A stretch of 64,000 nucleotides of DNA from contig JAPXLN010000006.1 in assembly GCA_033809515.1 (NCBI GenBank), forward strand, positions 15,186 through 79,185, read 5' to 3'. Under the pieces are notes generated by a model, which was not told the origin of the DNA, did no database searches, and was given only the letters and a program-made list of their open reading frames with translations. The position numbers and the translations under genes were made by a program. The first letter of the stretch is position 1. Every line of letters begins with the position of its first letter. This document shows positions 169 to 10,540 of the stretch, one piece after another. The stretch comes from Bacillota bacterium. Its GTDB lineage: Bacteria; Bacillota; Sulfobacillia; Fermentithermobacillales; Fermentithermobacillaceae.

Positions 169-1953
169 ATGCATGACTCCTACATAATCACTGACGTTGG
201 CAGTACAACCACGAAAGCAATTCTCATCGGGCCCAGGAACGGCGAGTACCGGCTTTTGGGCAGAGGTGAAGCTTCTACAACCGTGGAGAAGCCTTACGAG
301 GATGTCACCGTAGGCGTCCTCAACGCGATTGCCCGACTCAGCGCAGCTACCGGAGAGGACCTTGCCAGGGCCGTGACCTCGAAAAACGGTCAGAGGCGGT
401 ACCGTTACCTGTCTACGTCAAGCGCGGGCGGGGGTCTCCAGGTGTTAGTGCTGGGTCTGACCAGCAGGGTAACCGCCGAGAGCGCAGCCCGCGCAGCCTT
501 AGGGGGAGGGGCCATAATCCTCAATGTGATAGCAAGCGACGATGGCCGCCAATCCTTCGCCAAGATAGATGCCATAAGAAACAGCAGACCCGACATGGTG
601 CTTATTTCAGGAGGGCTTGACGGGGGCAACATAGACTTTGTACTTGAGCTTTGCGACATTCTCAATGCAGCTAACCCCATGCCTCGTTTCGGCAGGGATT
701 ACAAGATACCGGTCATATATGCAGGAAACAGAGCTGCCAGCGCTTTGGTCATAGATACCTTGTCAGACCGGTACGATGTAACCGTTGTGCCTAACCTGCG
801 CCCTACCTTCGATAGAGAAGAGCTTCTTCCGGCAAGAAACGCTATTCACGAACTTTTTATGTCTCACGTCATGAAGCAGGCGCCGGGGTACGAGACTTTG
901 TCTGCCTGGGTTGACGGAGACATTCTTCCCACGCCTGCTGCAGTGGGCAGCATTATGGAGGCGGCCGCCCTACGGAAGAAGGCTAACGTTCTGGGGGTGG
1001 ATATCGGCGGGGCCACCACTGATGTGTTTTCCGTAATCGAGGGCATGTTTTTTAGGTCTGTAAGCGCCAACATGGGTATGAGTTATTCCGCAGGAAATGT
1101 ACTGGTGGAATCCGGGATAGACAAGGTAGTACGCTGGCTTCCTTTCCACCTCCCACAGAACGAGGTTGCAGACAGGATCCTGACCAAGCTCATTAACCCG
1201 ACGTCCCTTCCTGAGGACCATTTGGACCTCTGTATAGAGCAAGCCCTGGCCACAGAAGCTCTGCGGCTCTCTTTTGATCAGCATCGCCAGGTGGCAACAA
1301 CTTTGCCCAGGCGGGCTGGGTCACTTGAGACCAGGCTGTTTACACGTTCTGAAGGGGTGGCTGCCTCTGGACCGGTTAAGGCCCTTGACATGGGGGACAT
1401 AGATCTGATTATCGGATCAGGAGGCGCTCTGTCTCATGCACCCAGGCGAAGTCAGGCTGCGCTGATGATGCTGAACGCTTTTCTTCCGGAAGGCATATCT
1501 TCCTTTGCCGTTGACAGCATCTTCATGATGCCTCACCTTGGGGTTCTTGCCCGGATTGACCCTGATGCGGCTCTTAGTGTGCTGGATAAGGACTGCCTTG
1601 TTCCGCTGGGTCCGGTCATTGCTCCTCAAGGCACAGGGGTTTCCGGAGGGCCCGGAGTGTCGGTACGGGCAATCCATCAGGGAGCCACACGTTCGATCCA
1701 GGTCCAGGCCGGGGATATTGGGGTATTGCCTTTGCCCAGGGGAGCTAACGCGCGTATCCAGGTTGAGTGTCATGGCTCGTTCCACATCAGCAGCTCGTCG
1801 CGGGCAGAGTTCAAAGCTGAAGGCGGCGAAGTGGGTATCATCATCGATGCCAGGGGGCGCCCTCTGGTTCTCCGGCAAGATCCGGAAGAAAGGGTAGCCG
1901 AGGCTCGAAAATGGGTACAGCAAGCAGGCATGACCGGTGGACAGGACAAGTAG
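169..1953 (+). CDS. MutL/GlmL/EutA-like ASKHA-fold ATPase (reactivase-type chaperone family), 594 aa with a C-terminal extension
   Basis: The N-terminal phosphate-1 loop IITDVGSTTTKAILI and the second loop LGVDIGGATTDVFSV at ~residue 280 are typical of glutamate-mutase MutL and EutA-type proteins. There is a strong RBS: GGCAGGAGGGG 6 nt before the ATG. Confidence 0.55.
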   Translation: MHDSYIITDVGSTTTKAILIGPRNGEYRLLGRGEASTTVEKPYEDVTVGVLNAIARLSAATGEDLARAVTSKNGQRRYRYLSTSSAGGGLQVLVLGLTSRVTAESAARAALGGGAIILNVIASDDGRQSFAKIDAIRNSRPDMVLISGGLDGGNIDFVLELCDILNAANPMPRFGRDYKIPVIYAGNRAASALVIDTLSDRYDVTVVPNLRPTFDREELLPARNAIHELFMSHVMKQAPGYETLSAWVDGDILPTPAAVGSIMEAAALRKKANVLGVDIGGATTDVFSVIEGMFFRSVSANMGMSYSAGNVLVESGIDKVVRWLPFHLPQNEVADRILTKLINPTSLPEDHLDLCIEQALATEALRLSFDQHRQVATTLPRRAGSLETRLFTRSEGVAASGPVKALDMGDIDLIIGSGGALSHAPRRSQAALMMLNAFLPEGISSFAVDSIFMMPHLGVLARIDPDAALSVLDKDCLVPLGPVIAPQGTGVSGGPGVSVRAIHQGATRSIQVQAGDIGVLPLPRGANARIQVECHGSFHISSSSRAEFKAEGGEVGIIIDARGRPLVLRQDPEERVAEARKWVQQAGMTGGQDK

Positions 1954-2015
1954 ATGCAGCATGTGGGCAGTCCACGTGGGTACATGAAGCTGTCAATACC
2001 GGGAGGTGACTCGAA

Positions 2016-3116
2016 TTGACTACTATGAAGCCCCAGAGAGTAAAGCGCCTTCGCCAGGTTCCCCTAACCGGGCGGATCCTCGTAAAGGAAGGCCATGCCG
2101 TTGAGCCGGATTCAGTTGTTGCCCGGGTTGAAACCCTGCCAGGACGAGTGCTGAAAGCTAACGCAGCGGGAGCCCTTGGAGTTGAGCCGGGAACGCTTGA
2201 TCGCTGGATGCTCAAGCAGGTAGGTGACCATGTATCAGCAGGAGAAGCCATAGCAGGGCGCACTGATTTCTTCGAGAGAAGATCAGCCAGGTCACCTATA
2301 GACGGCGTTCTTGCCATTGTGTCCAGAAACCTTGGATATGTTTACGTGAGGGAAATGATTGAGCTTGGTGAAGTAACCGGCCCTGTCAGGGTAGACGTTG
2401 CCAAAGATATCAGAGTCCCTCCTTCTGAAGTCCAGCGGTGCCTGATTTCCGGCATCAGGCCTGGGTCTATAGTGATCAAAGGGCAGATACTGGCCTCTAA
2501 CAAAGTGAATCCCCGTAAGCCCCTTGTGTCCGAGTCTCCTATTTACGGCAGAGTCAGGGAAGTCTCATTTGCCGAAGGTACGATCACCATAGCTCCCATC
2601 TTCCCCTCCCTGGATATTCTTGCCTACATGAAGGGCACAGTTACCGGGTTTGCCCCGGCGTCGGGGGTGGAAATTACGGGAAATGCTGTGGCCATAGACG
2701 GTATCTGGGGGTTGGGCGGTGAAGCTTTCGGACCCCTGAAGGTCATTGACGGCGACCTGACTGACGCATCTTCTTTGAAGGAGTCCGACAGGGGTTCCGT
2801 AGTCGCAGTGAACGGCACTGCATCCTATGAAGCGCTTGTAGCTGCGGAAGATGCAGGCCTGGCCGGAGCTGTTCTGGCGTACCTTCCTTCTCAAACGGCC
2901 TTGAGACTTGTGGGGCCCCACCGGAACCTAGGGGTTACCGGCGATGAAGAGGTTCCGTTTCCCATAGTGGTCACAGAAGGGTTTCTGCCTTCGCCCATGA
3001 AAGAGGAAACCCTCTCAACACTTAGGAGTCACCAGGGCACGGTTGTATCACTTAGAGGAATCACTCATATCCGGGCAGGAGTAATACGTCCGGAGATCAT
3101 TATTCCTGTCGATTGA
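2016..3116 (+). CDS. conserved hypothetical protein (366 aa), no recognisable family; second gene of the MutL-like operon
   Basis: Long ORF with a TTG start 7 nt after the RBS GGGAGGTG. It lies 62 nt after the previous gene. Codon usage matches its neighbours. Confidence 0.5.
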   Translation: MTTMKPQRVKRLRQVPLTGRILVKEGHAVEPDSVVARVETLPGRVLKANAAGALGVEPGTLDRWMLKQVGDHVSAGEAIAGRTDFFERRSARSPIDGVLAIVSRNLGYVYVREMIELGEVTGPVRVDVAKDIRVPPSEVQRCLISGIRPGSIVIKGQILASNKVNPRKPLVSESPIYGRVREVSFAEGTITIAPIFPSLDILAYMKGTVTGFAPASGVEITGNAVAIDGIWGLGGEAFGPLKVIDGDLTDASSLKESDRGSVVAVNGTASYEALVAAEDAGLAGAVLAYLPSQTALRLVGPHRNLGVTGDEEVPFPIVVTEGFLPSPMKEETLSTLRSHQGTVVSLRGITHIRAGVIRPEIIIPVD

Positions 3117-3138
3117 CTGCTTTGTTGGAGGTTATACT

Positions 3139-4293
3139 ATGACGAGCGGTGTTACTCTGGGTGAAAGCGGCGCAACTCCGTCCTTTAAGCCCGAGGTAGA
3201 CTACATTCCCAAAGGGTCCAGGCAAGTTCCCTGGCGCATCTGTACAAACTTTGCCGGTGCAGACGATCTTATGGACAGGTTTGGCCAGTGGCCGGATTAT
3301 GCCCTCATGCCCGAAAGGCTTGAGAGTCTCTACAGAAAGGAGAGACGGACGGAAGTTCCTAAGTTTTCCGTGGTTCATGATGGCGTGGTAAAACCGGCCT
3401 TTCCGTTCCTGGAGGAAACCGAGGGCCTTGCTATCCAGCGAGTTTTTGAGTCCAGCAAAGAGAGCATATATCCGGAGTTCAGACACGCTTTGAAAGGCAT
3501 TGAATCACAAAGCCCGATCTATGCAGACCGGTGCCTCCTCCTGATTCAGACTCTGCTTGTGCTCTATCTCCGGCACAAGGAAAAAGAGACCGGCATTTGG
3601 GAGGAGAGGTCGCCTGAACAAAGACTTGGGACAATTTTTGCAGCCGGTAACCACATTCCTGTGAGTTTCACTAGGGTGAATGCTTTTGTGGCCGGGATTG
3701 GCAGACGGCTGGCCTTCCCCTGGGGTGGGGCGTACAAAGAGTATGGCAAGCTGCTGTCCCTGATGGAAGACCCTTACACTGCATGGGTTCTGAGGACCGC
3801 AGACGACGACCTTCACGTCCTTGCCGCAGGTCCCACAGTCAGAGGTTTGAAACTGGCCGGTCTCATTGAGTTCCCGGTCTCTATGGTGTCTCACAAGAAT
3901 CACATTGCACTGAACGTTCCGGCCATAGATTCCAGGGAAGTTGAAGGTTTCCTGCCGCTTCTCACCAGGGGGCTTGGGGCTGTTGCATCGGAGACTGCGC
4001 CAGTGCTGTATGGTGTTCTTGATGTCTGGAAGAGAGGGCAATATGACTATCTGGAAGGCTGCGGCGATTACCTGGAGATGGCTTACGCGATCTTAGCCGG
4101 CCTTTTGTTCAAATGGGCCATGGAAGACGGTTTGCTTGGCGTGCCGCCTAAGCTTACCAAGTTCGGTGACGATTACTGGGTAGTCCAGAGGACTTTCTTT
4201 GAGCGACTGTCTTTTCGCAAGACTGAGTTCCCCGGGTTGTCTGTGCTCAGACAGGCTGATTCGGTCTGGGAACGCCTCTTGGAGCGGTCCTGA
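3139..4293 (+). CDS. conserved hypothetical protein (384 aa), no recognisable family; third gene of the MutL-like operon
   Basis: ATG start preceded by GGAGGT, 22 nt after the upstream stop. No signal peptide, TM segment or known motif seen. Confidence 0.5.
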   Translation: MTSGVTLGESGATPSFKPEVDYIPKGSRQVPWRICTNFAGADDLMDRFGQWPDYALMPERLESLYRKERRTEVPKFSVVHDGVVKPAFPFLEETEGLAIQRVFESSKESIYPEFRHALKGIESQSPIYADRCLLLIQTLLVLYLRHKEKETGIWEERSPEQRLGTIFAAGNHIPVSFTRVNAFVAGIGRRLAFPWGGAYKEYGKLLSLMEDPYTAWVLRTADDDLHVLAAGPTVRGLKLAGLIEFPVSMVSHKNHIALNVPAIDSREVEGFLPLLTRGLGAVASETAPVLYGVLDVWKRGQYDYLEGCGDYLEMAYAILAGLLFKWAMEDGLLGVPPKLTKFGDDYWVVQRTFFERLSFRKTEFPGLSVLRQADSVWERLLERS

Positions 4294-4295
4294 AG

Positions 4296-4877
4296 CTAGT
4301 CCTGGTTCAGCAATCCGGCAGTCTCGAATCTGCGGGCGATTATGGCGCCTAGAGCTGCTTTTAGAAGGTCAACAGGAAGGAAGGGCAAGGAACCTGCCGC
4401 AAAAGCTTCCCGAAGAGAAAGCTTAGTAAACCATGCCAGGTAACATGCGCCGAGGGCATGAACGGTCAGTATACCGCCCAGGAGGATGGGGACCAGGTAC
4501 GACGCCCAAGCATGCTTCCTGTTACTACGACTATGAACATGGTCCTTCGTCATATTCTGTCTCATGGCTGCGTGTACCGAGCCTGTGACCCATGCGCCTG
4601 CAACAAAGCCCAGCAGATAGCCTCCTGTGGGCCCAAGGAGAGTCCCCGGGCCGGATCTCCCTCCTGCAAACACAGGGAATCCAAGGCACCCGATTCCCAG
4701 GTAAAGCACCATGCTGGCTGCTCCCCACCAAGGCCCCAGGGCCATGCCGGCAAGCATGACGCCGAAGGTTTGGCCTGTGAGGGGCACCGGGCTGAAAGGA
4801 AGGGGTACAGCCACAAAGGAAAGCACGCAGGTGAGCCCTGCCCACATAGAGGTCTTGAGAAGCATGGCGACGCTCAT
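4296..4877 (-). CDS. bioY: BioY biotin transporter (ECF S-component)
   Basis: Motifs PLTGQTFGVMLAGMALGPWWGAASMVLYLGIGCLGFPVFAGG and GPTGGYLLGF are typical of BioY. The protein is multi-TM and 193 aa long. Confidence 0.75.
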   Translation of the reverse strand: MSVAMLLKTSMWAGLTCVLSFVAVPLPFSPVPLTGQTFGVMLAGMALGPWWGAASMVLYLGIGCLGFPVFAGGRSGPGTLLGPTGGYLLGFVAGAWVTGSVHAAMRQNMTKDHVHSRSNRKHAWASYLVPILLGGILTVHALGACYLAWFTKLSLREAFAAGSLPFLPVDLLKAALGAIIARRFETAGLLNQD

Positions 4878-4996
4878 TGATGATCATCTGCCTTGCAGGC
4901 CCTATTCAGCCACTCCTGTTTCATCTTTGTCTGCGTCCTCTTCCTGTAATTATACGTGTTTTTTTCGTCATCCGGCCTTGCCTGGATGCTGGGCTT

Positions 4997-5013
4997 ATGA
5001 TCAGAATGATCAT
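4997..5013. promoter_or_regulatory. perfect 17-bp palindrome ATGATCA-GAA-TGATCAT; related ATGATCAT copy at 4880-4887 overlapping the bioY start; candidate operator
   Basis: Seen directly in the sequence. It sits in the divergent intergenic region between bioY and the GRE activase. Confidence 0.3.
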
Positions 5014-5201
5014 AGACTAATCGCGCCGTACAGGCAACTTCTCGGCGGGCAGGGAAGATGACAGCCATCAGAGAAAAGTAAGGAAGGCAGTAAGGCCAAG
5101 AGACGAGTGTGAGCTTGTTGTCGCACCGCGCTCAGCCCAAGCTTTGGGGCAGAGCAAAGAAGACAGAGTGAGCGGCAGGGGCGAAACAGGAGGCGACCGG
5201 A

Positions 5202-6086
5202 CTGAATACAGGGGTCATATTTAACATTCAAAGGTACTCCATACATGATGGGCCGGGTATCAGGACGACCGTGTTCTTTAAGGGGTGTCCGCTGAGGTGT
5301 CTGTGGTGCCATAATCCGGAAAGTCAGATGGCAGGGCCTGAGCTTATGGTTTGGAGGAGCCGGTGTATCTCCTGTGGGGCATGCGTACGGGTCTGCCCTT
5401 CAGGAACGGCAAGAGAGGAAATGTGTGCCCTCTGCGGGAGGTGCGTGGAGGTCTGCCCTGCTAAGGCAAGGGAACTTGTGGGAAAGAAAGTCACGGTTGA
5501 CTATGTGGTTAAAGAGGTTCTGAAAGACAGGGTGTTTTATGAGGAATCCGGCGGCGGCGTCACTTTTTCCGGAGGAGAGCCGCTTATGCAGCCTGCGTTT
5601 CTCAGAGAGTGCCTGGAGGGGTGCAAAGAGGAAGGTCTGAACACTGTAGTCGATACCTCGGGGTTCGCTCCGTGGGACAGTATAAAGGCGGTATTCCCCC
5701 TGACAGACTTGTTTTTGTACGACATAAAGACCGTTGATGATGCCAGACACAGAGAGTACGTAGGTGCGCCCAGTGCCCTTGTATTGGACAACGTGAACCG
5801 GCTGGTAGCAGAGGGAGCTTGCGTTGTGGCAAGGTTGCCCTTGATACCGGGAGTCAATACGGATGATTCAAGCTTAAGGGATATAGGCGAATTTCTGCAG
5901 CGTACGGGCCTCAGGCGTATTGACGTGTTGCCATATCATGATACCGCCAAAGAGAAATATTCGAGGCTCAACAGGCAATATGCATTAGACAATGTACCGC
6001 CTGCATCAGGCGACGACCTGGCGCGCGCCCGGGGTATCCTTGGCGAGTTTGGCCTGGTTGAGGCGAATGGGAGGGAGTCACCATGA
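5202..6086 (+). CDS. glycyl-radical-enzyme activating enzyme (radical SAM, with two extra ferredoxin-like Cys clusters); start uncertain (candidate CTG at 5202; ORF track gives GTG 5271)
   Basis: GCPLRCLWCHNPES is a CxxxCxxC radical-SAM motif. CISCGACVRVCPSG and CALCGRCVEVCPAKA are typical of GRE activases. The conserved N-terminus GVIFNIQRYSIHDGPGIRTTVFF is in frame upstream of 5271 with no ATG/GTG/TTG. AGGAGG at 5188-5193 lies 8 nt before the in-frame CTG at 5202. Confidence 0.8.
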   Translation: MNTGVIFNIQRYSIHDGPGIRTTVFFKGCPLRCLWCHNPESQMAGPELMVWRSRCISCGACVRVCPSGTAREEMCALCGRCVEVCPAKARELVGKKVTVDYVVKEVLKDRVFYEESGGGVTFSGGEPLMQPAFLRECLEGCKEEGLNTVVDTSGFAPWDSIKAVFPLTDLFLYDIKTVDDARHREYVGAPSALVLDNVNRLVAEGACVVARLPLIPGVNTDDSSLRDIGEFLQRTGLRRIDVLPYHDTAKEKYSRLNRQYALDNVPPASGDDLARARGILGEFGLVEANGRESP

Positions 6087-8443
6087 GAGACAGAGTAAGA
6101 AAGCTCCGGGAAAGGAGCCTTGAGGCAGTGCCGACTCTTTCTACAGAGAGGGCCTGCCTGCTTACGGAGGCATACGGGAAATATGAAGGCAAGACGTCAG
6201 TTCCTGTGCTTAGGGCAATGGCCTTCAGACACCTAATGGAGAACAAGGAAGTCTATATAGGCCCGGATGAGTTGATTGTGGGAGAACGGGGTCCCCTTCC
6301 TAAGGCCACGCCTACTTACCCTGAGCTTTGCTGCCATACCCCGGATGATCTGCAAATCATAAGCGACAGGGAGAAGACTTTCTTCAAAGTAAGCGAAGAA
6401 GCTCAAAGGACTCAGGCTGAAGAGATTATTCCCTTTTGGCAGGATCGGTCAATGCGTAGGAAGATATTTGACCACATGACAAAGGAGTGGAAGGACTGCT
6501 ACGAAGCCGGGCTTTTCACTGAGTTCATGGAGCAACGAGCTCCGGGACATACGGTGGCAGACGACAAAATATACCAAAAAGGTTTCCTTGATTTCAAAGA
6601 GGATATCAGGGAAAGCCTTGAGAGCATCGACTATCTCAATGACCCGGAAGGCTATGACAAAGAGCAGGAACTGCAGGCCATGATGATATGCTGTGATGCC
6701 ATAGTGACATATGCCCGGCGGCATGCGGCGAAAGCCCTGGAAATGGCAGAGAAAGAGACTGACGGGCGCAGAAAGCATGAGCTTGAGGAAATCGCACGGA
6801 TTTGCTCCCGGGTTCCGGCTCATTCTCCACAGACTTTCCGGGAAGCTCTTCAGGCGTACTGGTTTGTGCACCTGGGGGTAATCACTGAGCTTAACACCTG
6901 GGACTCTTTCAACCCGGGAAGGCTGGACCAGCACCTTTACCCGTTCTACAAGAAGGAACTGGAAGATGGGACCCTCACCCGGGAAGACGCCGAGGAGCTT
7001 TTGCAGTGCTTCTGGGTTAAGTTCAACAACCAGCCGGCCCCTCCTAAGGTAGGCATTACTCTGGCTGAAAGCGGAACCTACACGGATTTTGCCAACATAA
7101 ACACAGGGGGGTTGACGCCTGACGGAAAAGACGGCGTTAACGATGTCACCTATCTTATACTGGACGTAATTGACACCATGCGTTTGGTTCAGCCTAGCTC
7201 TAACATTCAGCTCAGCGCGAAGAATCCGGACAAGTTCCTGAAAAGGGCCTGCGAGATCATACGCAAGGGATGGGGGCAGCCGTCAGTCTTTAACGCCGAC
7301 GTCATTGTCGAGGAAATGCTGCTGCAGGGGAAGTCCGTTGAGGATGCCCGCTGTGGGGGCACCAGCGGTTGTGTTGAGACAGGATCTTTCGGCAAAGAGA
7401 GTTACATCCTTACAGGGTATTTCAACCTAATGAAGGTCTTGGAGATAACCTTGCACAACGGCGTCGACCCCAGGACAGGAAAGAAACTTGGATTAAGCAC
7501 GGGAGACCCCGGGAACTTTGATTCTTTTGAATGTCTCATGAGCGCGTTCAATAAGCAGCTGGACCACTTTATAGACATTAAGATAAGAGGCAACCAGGTC
7601 ATTGAATCTCTGTACGCCAGACACATGCCCTCGCCCTTTCTCTCTGTGATAATCAGCGATTGCATTGAGAAAGGGAAGGATTACAACGCCGGAGGGGCCC
7701 GGTACCACAGCAGGTACATTCAGGGAGTTGGAATAGGGACGATTACAGACAGCCTTTCGGCAATCAAGCGCCATGTCTTTGAGAGACGGGCAGTAGACAT
7801 GGCAGGCCTTTTGAGCGCTCTTGAGGCAGATTTTGAGGGACATGAGGTTTTGCGCCACACTCTTCTTAACCATACCCCCAAATACGGAAATGACAATGAC
7901 TATGCTGATTGCATTATGAAAGAGGTGTTTGACGTCTTCTTTCAGGCGGTCAACGGCAGAAGGAGCGTTACAGGGGGCACATACAGGATAAACATGCTTC
8001 CGACCACCTGCCATGTGTATTTCGGTTCGGTTATCGGTGCCACGCCCGACGGAAGAAGGGCTTTCCAACCGTTGTCTGAGGGCATATCGCCGGTACAGGG
8101 GGCAGACCGGCTGGGTCCTTCAGCTGCTGTCAAATCGGCGTCAAAAATGGACCATGTGAAGACCGGAGGTACTTTGCTCAACCAGAAGTTTACGCCTGCG
8201 CTTTTGGAGGGAGAGATAGGCTTAGATGCTTTGGCGCGTCTTGTTAGAGGGTATTTCCGGTTGGGAGGGCATCACATTCAGTTTAACGTGGTAAGCGCTG
8301 AAGTTCTGAAAAAGGCTCAAGATAACCCCGAGGAATACAGGGATCTGATAGTGAGAGTTGCAGGGTACAGTGACTATTTCTGCGACCTGTCCAGGGCCCT
8401 TCAGGATGAGATAATCGCGCGAACGGAACACCGGGTCTTTTAA
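6083..8443 (+). CDS. glycyl radical enzyme, PFL2/glycerol-dehydratase-like 1,2-eliminase class (786 aa); substrate unassigned
   Basis: C-terminal glycyl-radical motif RVAGYSDYF with the Gly at ~residue 761. Active-site loop GGTSGCVETG has a single Cys with Glu two residues later, as in glycerol dehydratase, HypD and CutC. Start ATG overlaps the activase stop (ATGA). Confidence 0.85.
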   Translation: MRDRVRKLRERSLEAVPTLSTERACLLTEAYGKYEGKTSVPVLRAMAFRHLMENKEVYIGPDELIVGERGPLPKATPTYPELCCHTPDDLQIISDREKTFFKVSEEAQRTQAEEIIPFWQDRSMRRKIFDHMTKEWKDCYEAGLFTEFMEQRAPGHTVADDKIYQKGFLDFKEDIRESLESIDYLNDPEGYDKEQELQAMMICCDAIVTYARRHAAKALEMAEKETDGRRKHELEEIARICSRVPAHSPQTFREALQAYWFVHLGVITELNTWDSFNPGRLDQHLYPFYKKELEDGTLTREDAEELLQCFWVKFNNQPAPPKVGITLAESGTYTDFANINTGGLTPDGKDGVNDVTYLILDVIDTMRLVQPSSNIQLSAKNPDKFLKRACEIIRKGWGQPSVFNADVIVEEMLLQGKSVEDARCGGTSGCVETGSFGKESYILTGYFNLMKVLEITLHNGVDPRTGKKLGLSTGDPGNFDSFECLMSAFNKQLDHFIDIKIRGNQVIESLYARHMPSPFLSVIISDCIEKGKDYNAGGARYHSRYIQGVGIGTITDSLSAIKRHVFERRAVDMAGLLSALEADFEGHEVLRHTLLNHTPKYGNDNDYADCIMKEVFDVFFQAVNGRRSVTGGTYRINMLPTTCHVYFGSVIGATPDGRRAFQPLSEGISPVQGADRLGPSAAVKSASKMDHVKTGGTLLNQKFTPALLEGEIGLDALARLVRGYFRLGGHHIQFNVVSAEVLKKAQDNPEEYRDLIVRVAGYSDYFCDLSRALQDEIIARTEHRVF

Positions 8444-8461
8444 GGGAATCGCGGGGTTTGG

Positions 8462-10540
8462 TTATTCGAGCCCGACCTGGTAGTCGTAGACTATCTGGGA
8501 TATGCGGCCGATATACTCAAACCCCAGTTCCACGTCGTCGTGGCCCTTGGACATGATTGACAGAATGTAGGGACGATCTGCGTAGATTATGCCCACGTCG
8601 TCAGCTACTCCTGTTATGTCGCCTTCCTTGTGGCCTACCTCTACTCTGTCGCCGATGAACCGGTTTAGCCCTGTGTTCCAGATTGTGTGGGACAGGTCGT
8701 ACATGAGTTTTTCGCCTTCGGCGTTTGACCGGGCAAAGTTTAGGGCCGCTTCCATGTAGGTTGCCATGTCCCTGGCCGTTGAGATGTTCTGGCCTCCGGG
8801 ATAGACGACCGTGCCTCCCAGGGTCCTCATGAAACCGGCGATGTTACCTACTCCAAGCCTTCGCTCGAGCATTTTCCAGGCTACGTTGTCGCTTTCAACG
8901 ATAGCCTTTTCGGCCAGTTCTCTCATGGAGAAGCTGTCCCCGTCCTTAGCCGTGAATTGGAGCGATCCTGCGCCGCCCCTCCAATCTCTGTCGGAGTTGT
9001 ACGTCAGACGCTCGTTCCATGACAGTTTCCCCTGGGACACAAGGTTTGCGACGTAGAGCACGACGGGCACCTTTACAGTGCTTGCTGCCGGCACCGGAAG
9101 GTCTTCATTTATGCCAAAGGTCTTGCCTGAGGTCAGATCCTTGAAGAAGATGCCCCATTGTCCTCCCAGCCCGGAAACGTAGTCCTGGAGCTCGTCTTTT
9201 AGTTCAGCATAGCTGGGATTCCAGGGATCCTGGCTTTCGCCTGGGCTTGCGGTTCCACCGGAGCTTCCGCTGCCACCGGAGACACTCATTTTGCTGATGA
9301 TATCCATGCCTCTGATGCCGTGCAATGACTCGTTTGTGTAGCCTAGCCTTTGCCGGCAAATCCGCCACACTGCGCCTGTTCCGGATTTACCTGAGTACCC
9401 TGCGCCCTCTGTTTGGGTAACCCCCATGTCAACCAGATAGAGGCAGCCGTCAGGTCCGAACTCGGCATCTACGAGCCTGTTGAAGCCGGTGAGGCTGTCG
9501 CCTGCAGGAATGTTGGTCTTGTTCTGGGCAAAAACATGGGATGCGCCTGTTTCGGGGTCCAGTCTCAATACCTGGCTTGCGGATCCCTGCTTTGAGGTCA
9601 TGGAGGTCCACAGGCGGGAGCTCCCATGTTCCAGGGACCCAAAGGTTGTCAGGTAAACGTCGTTGGGAGAACCAAAACGCACAGGCGCAACGTCGCAATG
9701 CATTGTGGCATTCTGCGGTATGGTGGTTATGCGCACGGGAGGAGCGCCTGTGGTGCCGCTGCGGTACCCGGGGGCGATTTCCGGACCGCCCTCAGTCCCT
9801 GAAGGTCCCTGGCCCTCTTTGCCCTTGCCCTGCATCACGCCCTGAACCACAATTAGCGCAGGGTCGTCGCCTGATAGGAACCCAAAGGCATACGGGCCGG
9901 TCAGCCCTGATACCACAAGGTTCTTTTCAATGCTCTGGCCTGCGGCTGCGGGGTCTATCCGGAATATGGCGCCCTTTGCCGTACCTGTGGCAGGGGCGCC
10001 GGTGCCTAGGTAGATCATTCTGTCGGGGCCGACCTTGACGCTAAGCGGAACCCCGTATTGAGAAGGCGCTTCTACTAGGTCCTGCCTTACTCCGGCGGTG
10101 AACGCTGATAGCATGTTCTCGTGAGCTACGTACATAGTGCCGTCGTGGAACCGGATATCTGCAATGCTTTTCAGCCCGGTAATGACTGAAGCGCTGGTTT
10201 CGCTGTCAATGCGCAATACACGGCCCGGCGCAGTTTGGTTTGTCCGGGCGACCGAAGCGCTGATGGATGAGGCAGCCTCAGCCACGTACATCCGGCCCAT
10301 GTCATCCCAGGTGACTGAAGCCGGCGAAGTGAGACCTGTTACGACAGCTTCAATGTGGTAACCTGCAGGGAGCACCACCGGGTTGGTGCCGGCACGGGCC
10401 GGTCGTATGATGAGCGTTGCAGCAGAAACTATTGCTAAAAGGCCAACGAGAATTCCCCAGAACACTCTCTTTGACACGACATAGATTCCTCCCAGGGCAA
10501 AGTTCCTGTCGTAAGTATGTCCCCGGGAGGATCGAAGCAA
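8462..10540 (-). CDS. secreted/membrane-anchored fusion protein: N-terminal beta-propeller (sorbosone-dehydrogenase/NHL-like) + C-terminal class-A beta-lactamase-like serine-hydrolase domain
   Basis: N-terminal hydrophobic anchor VFWGILVGLLAIVSAATLII. Propeller-like repeats occupy residues ~40-430. The C-terminal domain aligns to class-A beta-lactamases: STVK (SxxK), ESDN (SDN), and HKEGD in place of KTG. Confidence 0.55.
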   Translation of the reverse strand: MLRSSRGHTYDRNFALGGIYVVSKRVFWGILVGLLAIVSAATLIIRPARAGTNPVVLPAGYHIEAVVTGLTSPASVTWDDMGRMYVAEAASSISASVARTNQTAPGRVLRIDSETSASVITGLKSIADIRFHDGTMYVAHENMLSAFTAGVRQDLVEAPSQYGVPLSVKVGPDRMIYLGTGAPATGTAKGAIFRIDPAAAGQSIEKNLVVSGLTGPYAFGFLSGDDPALIVVQGVMQGKGKEGQGPSGTEGGPEIAPGYRSGTTGAPPVRITTIPQNATMHCDVAPVRFGSPNDVYLTTFGSLEHGSSRLWTSMTSKQGSASQVLRLDPETGASHVFAQNKTNIPAGDSLTGFNRLVDAEFGPDGCLYLVDMGVTQTEGAGYSGKSGTGAVWRICRQRLGYTNESLHGIRGMDIISKMSVSGGSGSSGGTASPGESQDPWNPSYAELKDELQDYVSGLGGQWGIFFKDLTSGKTFGINEDLPVPAASTVKVPVVLYVANLVSQGKLSWNERLTYNSDRDWRGGAGSLQFTAKDGDSFSMRELAEKAIVESDNVAWKMLERRLGVGNIAGFMRTLGGTVVYPGGQNISTARDMATYMEAALNFARSNAEGEKLMYDLSHTIWNTGLNRFIGDRVEVGHKEGDITGVADDVGIIYADRPYILSIMSKGHDDVELGFEYIGRISQIVYDYQVGLE

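Follow-up and report, generated by a model that had tools for sequence, protein, structure and literature searches.

A predicted trans-4-hydroxy-L-proline dehydratase and its radical-SAM activase in an uncultured Bacillota bacterium

HypD, the trans-4-hydroxy-L-proline dehydratase, is an established and structurally characterised glycyl radical enzyme (GRE) known from many phyla and many environments (PMC6219649, PMC7077986), and together with its activase it gives anaerobes a route from collagen-derived hydroxyproline to a proline precursor. In HypD, as in the GRE 1,2-eliminases, a leaving group next to the position from which hydrogen is abstracted is removed by radical elimination. According to the HypD structural paper, Asp278 and Asp339 are strictly conserved in HypD and missing from other eliminases, mutants of the HypD-specific catalytic residues (His160, Asp278 and Asp339) are inactive, and the position of HypD Ser334 is occupied by Phe in glycerol dehydratase, CutC, propanediol dehydratase and IslA.

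The gene pair analysed here lies in a 64-kb stretch of Bacillota DNA (the window; all features positioned below are on its + strand), and homology makes it very probable that the pair encodes HypD and a dedicated radical-SAM activase. The 786-aa GRE (6083–8443) matched the NCBIfam equivalog for trans-4-hydroxy-L-proline dehydratase, NF043068, with 1409.4 bits over profile positions 2–783 of 784, which is about 300 bits above the curated cutoff of 1100 bits. The runner-up families were HpsG (592 bits), CutC (530) and PFL (120); the CutC model TIGR04394 (529.8 bits against a cutoff of 1050) and the pyruvate formate-lyase model TIGR01255 (120 against 994) were both failed. Pfam placed the protein in the PFL-like (PF02901, E=2.8e-236) and Gly_radical (PF01228, E=4e-35) families, far beyond chance. 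Among solved structures the best match was Clostridioides difficile HypD (6VXC/6VXE), with 1165 bits and 61.5% identity in an alignment that is gapless across 781 residues, while all other characterised GREs scored less than half as high (for example, glycerol dehydratase 570, CutC 528 and propanediol dehydratase 499 bits, down to 407 for IslA and 99 for PFL). Database relatives that are 70–75% identical to the window GRE carry the NCBI name trans-4-hydroxy-L-proline dehydratase.

The active site points the same way. The Cys loop, SGCVE, has one Cys and no adjacent Cys-Cys; its GCVE (residues 429–432, 7367–7378) holds the predicted thiyl-radical residue Cys430 and also Glu432, which correspond to Cys434 and Glu436 of C. 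difficile, and the glycyl radical motif RVAGYSDYF (residues 758–766, 8354–8380) holds Gly761, equivalent to Gly765 (residue numbers in the window GRE are those of native C. difficile HypD minus 4). The structural paper names 15 residues in or near the active site, and the window GRE has the same amino acid at every one of them: in C. difficile numbering, F152, R156, H160, W277, D278, K326, S334, D339, F340, C434, V435, E436, Y450, T645 and G765. These include the catalytic residues, aligned without gaps as H156, D274 and D335 (HypD His160, Asp278 and Asp339), and those that bind the carboxylate and ring of hydroxyproline, S330, Y446, T641 and F336 (HypD Ser334, Tyr450, Thr645 and Phe340); F148, W273, R152 and K322 (HypD Phe152, Trp277, Arg156 and Lys326) are kept as well. 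Thus the window GRE is like C. difficile HypD in length class, GCVE loop, Gly motif and active-site residues. Glycerol dehydratase (C. butyricum DhaB1, PDB 1R8W), propanediol dehydratase, CutC, HpfG, HpyG and HpzG share with it the GRE fold and the CXE loop, but these eliminases score 460–570 bits and are without the HypD-specific Asp278/Asp339. PflB (PDB 1H16) shares the glycyl radical domain and the dependence on an activase, but differs in its adjacent Cys-Cys. The initial annotation, which had named the GCVE and RVAGYSDYF motifs and assigned the protein to an eliminase-type, non-PFL class, with hydroxyproline dehydratase among its own examples, was right on these points.

The activase (5202–6086, 294 aa when counted from CTG 5202, with the stop TGA at 6084–6086) is predicted to be a HypD-activating enzyme of the radical-SAM type. 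It contains the DGPGIR motif of GRE activases (residues 16–21, 5247–5264), which is conserved in all aligned relatives, the radical-SAM [4Fe-4S] motif CxxxCxxC in the form CPLRCLWC (residues 29–36, Cys29/Cys33/Cys36, 5286–5309), and two ferredoxin-like CxxCxxCxxxC motifs (residues 55–65 and 75–85, 5364–5456), so that the CxxxCxxC and paired ferredoxin-like clusters described initially are indeed present. Pfam found Radical_SAM and Fer4 domains, and the GRE-activase subfamily model TIGR02494 (PFLE_PFLC) was passed with 349.9 bits against a cutoff of 174.35. The top NCBIfam family was NF043069 (T4HPD_activ_SAM), at 360.8 bits, under its cutoff of 425. When six activases from beside HypD homologues in other species were tested against the same model, four (L086, a sister contig, included) missed the cutoff (377, 381, 389 and 398 bits) and two passed (428.6 and 485.8). 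C. difficile HypD-AE likewise has the CxxxCxxC and two ferredoxin-like motifs; compared with the C. difficile system, the linker between the clusters of the window activase is shorter, its C-terminal tail has diverged, and a CTG stands where a canonical start would be. In the sister contigs L086 and L088 the linker between the ferredoxin-like motifs is longer by 19 aa; the activases of L004 and L029 have one as short as that of the window.

The one mildly unusual feature of the locus lies at the start of the activase, where neither ATG nor GTG nor TTG precedes the conserved N-terminus. Its frame opens after a TGA at 5169–5171 and runs without any of these codons up to GTG 5271. Starting at GTG 5271 would remove the conserved GVIFNIQRYSIHDGPGIRT N-terminus, including DGPGIR, and we rejected this codon because the segment lost, GxIFxIQRYSxHDGPGIRT, is universally conserved in aligned relatives. 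The plausible start is instead CTG 5202, which lies 8 nt downstream of an AGGAGG Shine-Dalgarno box (5188–5193, read from the sequence) and coincides exactly with the homologous start codon (ATG, TTG or GTG) in 40 of 75 relatives, 20 of which use TTG; L016 has ATT at that codon. Position 5188, from which the feature had originally been drawn, is the first base of that box and no start codon. A similar arrangement, with a Shine-Dalgarno-like GGGAGG, 8 nt and CTG, is kept in L086 and L088, a sister lineage that is roughly 10% diverged. For these two contigs gene callers chose an upstream ATG, which extends the protein by 20 codons; we rejected this start because other relatives do not conserve the extension and, in the window, a stop interrupts it. 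The stop is the in-frame TGA that ends an 84-nt insertion (5088–5171), present in the window's activase leader when compared with L086/L088; it removes the ATG that the callers had used. No copies of the insertion, of the kind expected of a repeat or mobile element, were found in the window or in any fetched locus. An Rfam scan of the leader and the BioY intergenic region (4700–5400) gave no match at E<=1, and a scan for consensus promoters and terminators gave weak matches only, none convincing for the operon. Since HypD has flanking sigma-54 activators in 14 relatives, the leader was also inspected by eye for a -24/-12 element of the sigma-54 type, and none was seen.

These observations could mean that the locus is decaying or silent, its activase start having been lost (TTG or ATG changed to CTG, with the stop-bearing 84-nt insertion upstream) and HypD being left unactivatable in this organism. 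Such a reading concerns expression rather than the identity of the enzyme, and is compatible with the HypD assignment. The conserved activase N-terminus with no ATG, GTG or TTG before it would fit, as would the low efficiency of CUG initiation in E. coli, only about 1–2% of that at AUG (bioRxiv 10.1101/063800). The same could be said of the protein collection, which contains the adjacent GRE but no identical activase; an exact look-up there of four candidate activase N-termini, from CTG, ATA, ATT and GTG starts, returned none. Against decay, the frame of 294 codons is unbroken and retains its three Cys motifs, the GRE itself is intact, and the combination of Shine-Dalgarno box and CTG is conserved in the diverged sister lineage. 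Moreover, the activase gene is under purifying selection, with a dN/dS against L086 of 0.16 (at dS 0.29), and an activase acts catalytically, so that a low level may suffice. We regard a silent locus as unlikely. Whether the activase is truly translated from the conserved CUG, as the extreme case of a tendency towards weak starts throughout the family, seems to us an evenly balanced question; if it is, the CUG start would hold the activase, which acts catalytically, at a level far lower than that of the HypD gene it overlaps. The activase, having no canonical start codon, may be dropped or mis-started by annotation pipelines.

Activase and GRE are joined by an ATGA stop/start overlap (6083–6086), as the initial annotation had stated, and the GRE has its own Shine-Dalgarno box, GGAGGGAG (6070–6077), within the 3’ end of the activase gene. 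At about 5900–6100 there is a break in sequence identity, from about 90% on the left to about 100% on the right, which may reflect either recombination or a chimeric assembly. Operons of other GRE 1,2-eliminases usually have the GRE before the activase, and the order seen here had been described as inverted. That description does not hold for this family: of 85 related loci, 80 have the activase before the GRE and none has the opposite arrangement, and activase-first is thus the norm for HypD. Uncultured Bacillota from anaerobic digesters carry HypD homologues with 72–75% GRE identity (L001/P0002 and L007, and the Candidatus Fermentithermobacillaceae MAGs L010–L013 and L017), which, like the window, have the activase immediately upstream on the same strand; several of them, unlike the window, carry genes for M24 prolidase, FAD/DAO oxidoreductase or OCD on the downstream side. 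The neighbours of the window pair are BioY, in divergent orientation, and a beta-lactamase-like gene that is convergent with it. The reported absence of substrate-indicating neighbours was borne out across the 64-kb window, where tblastn with P5C reductase (P5CR), M24 prolidase, proline racemase, OCD, sigma-54 activator and FAD oxidoreductase sequences gave no matches and no transporter for proline compounds was found. The pair is also without the adjoining P5C reductase gene seen in many Clostridial genomes (PMC6219649). Missing proline-related neighbours are also common among the relatives. Where such proline and hydroxyproline genes do lie near the pair in relatives, they speak for the HypD assignment: M24 prolidase in 17 loci, the Pro_racemase family in 9, and P5CR and OCD in 6 each. 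Of about 77 related loci, just 6 have P5CR within 6 kb.

A gene context that gives no pointer to substrate leaves room for a HypD-like paralogue that acts on something else, such as another stereoisomer or N-methyl-hydroxyproline (as HpyG/HpzG do), or that is a C-N lyase like HplG; several hydroxyproline-variant GREs have recently been described (PMC13450708), and family names can hide shifts in substrate. We consider this very unlikely, given a score some 300 bits over a curated equivalog cutoff, the identity of every HypD residue that contacts hydroxyproline, and the far lower scores of the variants themselves (HpyG, 8ID1, 490 bits; HpzG, 8IOF, 460; HplG, 7VUA, 419; against 1165 for HypD). 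Least credible, to the point of being almost negligible, is the original proposal of an orphan 1,2-eliminase with an open substrate, possibly of the glycerol or propanediol dehydratase type in an unusual inverted operon, which can draw on a Cys loop common to all GRE eliminases and on the uninformative window, but meets glycerol and propanediol dehydratase structures at less than half of HypD’s score, Ser330 where those enzymes, CutC and IslA have Phe, the HypD-specific Asp274 and Asp335, and a gene order that is the family norm. Taken together, the NF043068 match and the active-site residues settle the predicted substrate of the window GRE as that of HypD, uninformative neighbours notwithstanding, and the initial interpretation is on the whole partly supported.

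As HypD and its activase, the pair would be expected to work by the mechanism of the characterised C. difficile enzyme. The two genes form a single unit in which the activase comes first, and translation of the activase most likely begins at the weak CTG codon behind its strong Shine-Dalgarno box. By analogy with the C. difficile enzyme, the [4Fe-4S] cluster at the activase CxxxCxxC motif would reductively cleave S-adenosylmethionine to a 5’-deoxyadenosyl radical, which would take a hydrogen from the GRE at Gly761. With every turnover the radical would pass to Cys430, which would abstract hydrogen from C5 of hydroxyproline; Asp274, assisted by His156, Asp335 and Glu432, would handle the protons of the amine and the hydroxyl group, the hydroxyl at C4 would depart as water, and a hydrogen would be given back to C4. 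The predicted product is delta-1-pyrroline-5-carboxylate (P5C), which would then be reduced to proline or enter glutamate metabolism through enzymes presumably encoded outside the window.

HypD with its activase is a well-studied and widespread pair, and the locus is an ordinary instance of what is already known; beyond annotation, the finding is of little consequence. It does illustrate that a CXE Cys loop and uninformative neighbours are insufficient grounds for calling a GRE an orphan. For the organism itself, an uncultured member of the Bacillota, the sequence of the locus suggests a capacity for anaerobic dehydration of hydroxyproline.

The 786-codon open reading frame read from the window sequence at 6083–8443 (+) encodes a glycyl radical enzyme (GRE) with the Cys loop GCVE at residues 429–432 and the glycyl motif RVAGYSDYF at residues 758–766 of its translation. 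Pfam finds the PFL-like domain at E=2.8e-236 and the Gly_radical domain at E=4e-35, and the HypD (trans-4-hydroxy-L-proline dehydratase) equivalog of NCBIfam, NF043068, gives 1409.4 bits against a curated cutoff of 1100. The runner-up families, sulfopropanediol dehydratase HpsG (592), CutC (530) and PFL (120), are all far under their cutoffs. The initial reading of the enzyme as an eliminase and not a PFL was right. Among all PDB chains the top match is C. difficile HypD (6VXC/6VXE; 1165 bits, 781 residues without a gap, 61.5% identity), and no other characterised GRE reaches half of this score: glycerol dehydratase 570 bits, CutC 528, propanediol dehydratase 499, HpyG (8ID1) 490, HpzG (8IOF) 460, HplG (7VUA) 419, IslA 407 and PFL 99 (names of the 8ID1, 8IOF and 7VUA enzymes as in a 2026 review, PMC13450708). 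Database relatives with 70–75% identity to the GRE carry the NCBI name trans-4-hydroxy-L-proline dehydratase.

The hydroxyproline-binding, acid-base or nearby residues of C. difficile HypD are Phe152, Arg156, His160, Trp277, Asp278, Lys326, Ser334, Asp339, Phe340, Cys434, Val435, Glu436, Tyr450, Thr645 and the radical Gly765 (PMC7077986). The alignment has no gaps and an offset of 4, so that each can be read off directly, and the window GRE has the same residue at all 15 positions. They include the equivalents of Asp278 and Asp339, which HypD strictly conserves and other eliminases lack, and of Ser334, which stands in place of a Phe of GD, CutC, PD and IslA (PMC7077986). Given the family score, the structure match, the active-site identity and the NCBI-named relatives, the substrate cannot be called open, nor the enzyme an orphan, as the initial annotation had it; judged by its sequence, the window GRE is HypD. 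By analogy with the characterised family, SAM cleavage by the activase would yield a 5'-deoxyadenosyl radical, and the radical would be installed on Gly761. Cys430 would then take a hydrogen from C5 of hydroxyproline, proton transfers would be handled by Asp274 together with His156, Asp335 and Glu432, and the C4 hydroxyl would be lost as water with return of the hydrogen to C4, giving delta-1-pyrroline-5-carboxylate (P5C; by analogy with PMC7077986). Whether P5C is reduced to proline or oxidised to glutamate would be set by genes outside the window.

Directly upstream (+) lies the GRE-activase frame, ending in TGA 6084–6086; its stop overlaps the GRE start as ATGA (6083–6086), behind a Shine-Dalgarno box GGAGGGAG at 6070–6077. 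The translation carries the radical-SAM motif CPLRCLWC (Cys29, Cys33, Cys36) and two ferredoxin-like CxxCxxCxxxC motifs (residues 55–65 and 75–85), so that the sequence features first noted for the pair are all present. The supposedly inverted gene order is no feature of this locus, since activase-first is the standard HypD arrangement: when activases were located by tblastn in 80 loci from different species, with GREs 65–75% identical to the window GRE, plus several metagenomic contigs, 80 of 85 loci had it upstream of the GRE in the same orientation (gap under 300 nt in 78 of those 80) and none had it downstream; the other five had either no room upstream (three) or no tblastn match (two). 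The activase scores best with the HypD activase equivalog NF043069, where its 360.8 bits are under the cutoff of 425; for the general GRE-activase subfamily TIGR02494 it exceeds the cutoff (349.9 vs 174). As four of six activases adjoining HypD homologues elsewhere are also under 425 (377, 381, 389, 398; the others reach 428.6 and 485.8), the shortfall comes from divergence within this largely environmental set of Bacillota sequences and does not point to a different partner. The two genes are thus a standard HypD/HypD-AE pair, already known and recognised automatically by current curated models.

Clustering of the ORFs flanking the relatives' pairs gave an M24 Xaa-Pro peptidase in 17 loci, a sigma-54 activator in 14, FAD/DAO-type oxidoreductases in about 10, proline-racemase family members in 9, and P5C reductase and the ornithine cyclodeaminase family in 6 each. 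These recurrent proline/hydroxyproline neighbours fit the HypD assignment. None of the six is encoded within the 64-kb window, and any given partner is missing from most related loci. The pair is surrounded by core Bacillota genes, several of them named from our own reading of the translations: DegV, ComEA, GroES/EL, ComEC, HolA, ValS, HrcA, DnaJ, PhoH, GlyQS, PpdK, DnaG, SigA and glycolysis genes. HypD is widespread in environmental anaerobes, and P5C reductase adjacency is typical mainly of Clostridiales (PMC6219649).

On the upstream flank a BioY gene (4296–4877) diverges from the pair. The intergenic region contains a perfect inverted repeat TATGATCA-gaa-TGATCATA (4996–5014), partly conserved in L086, and a palindrome GATGATCATC (4879–4888) immediately beyond the start codon of BioY (CAT 4875–4877, minus strand); both may be operator sites. 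Beyond BioY is an operon-like trio (169–4293, +) of a 594-aa GlmL/MutL-family protein (PF13941, E=7.8e-110; under cutoff for both the GlmL and the ornithine Or-4 equivalog) and two proteins of 366 and 384 aa that matched no Pfam or NCBIfam family; the trio is syntenic in L086 and L088 (sister metagenomic contigs from Logan, SRR28714610 and SRR28714609) and was not found beside HypD of other species. Convergent with the GRE, with 18 nt between stop codons, is a gene (8462–10540, −) for a 692-aa protein whose N-terminal region is ScyE/DUF7133-like and whose C-terminal domain is class-A beta-lactamase-like (PF13354, E=8.4e-46).

Comparison of window 2600–10313 with L086/L088 shows an abrupt identity break at about 6000: to the left (unknown genes, BioY, most of the activase) identity is mostly 82–98%, about 90% overall, and to the right (GRE, beta-lactamase-like gene) about 100%, with a GRE dS of 0.015 vs 0.29 for the activase. 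This reflects either recombination between related strains or chimeric metagenome assembly. Within 5364–5456, the linker between the two ferredoxin-like motifs is 19 aa (57 nt, in-frame) shorter in the window activase than in L086/L088, its otherwise similar closest relatives; equally short linkers occur in activases of L004 (Desulfotruncus alcoholivorax, GCA_000430885.1) and the related locus L029, and the family as a whole shows wide variation in linker length. The C-terminal tail of the window activase is atypical as well.

The one unusual detail of the pair is the activase start codon, where possible CTG initiation is a small curiosity. The frame opens after TGA 5169–5171, and the next ATG, GTG or TTG is GTG 5271, a start that would remove the conserved segment GVIFNIQRYSIHDGPGIRT and was rejected. 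CTG 5202 stands 8 nt after a perfect AGGAGG (5188–5193), and among 75 relatives 40 have a canonical start at the homologous codon (20 TTG, 18 ATG, 2 GTG) and 21 more within −6 to +3 codons of it. GGGAGG, 8 nt and CTG are kept in L086/L088, two near-identical contigs of the same synteny whose activase is well diverged from that of the window and under purifying selection (dN/dS 0.16). Gene callers start the activase of these contigs at an ATG 20 codons upstream, an option lost in the window through an 84-nt insertion (5088–5171) ending in an in-frame stop. In E. coli, CUG initiates at about 1–2% of the AUG level (bioRxiv 10.1101/063800). Our inference is a start at CTG 5202 with low-level production of the activase; alternatively, the activase is effectively silent. 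A 15-billion-protein collection holds the adjacent GRE (P0001, an identical NCBI entry) and no identical activase, which suggests that the activase was not among the proteins called in the source annotation.

Among the 75 related loci (L001–L086), half of the 40 starting at the homologous codon use TTG, and three of the 75 (L016, L033, L035) lack a canonical start ahead of the conserved motif. The homologous codon of L016 is ATT, preceded by an SD-like GGGGGTGAT. These sequences suggest a family-wide tendency of HypD activases to weak initiation.
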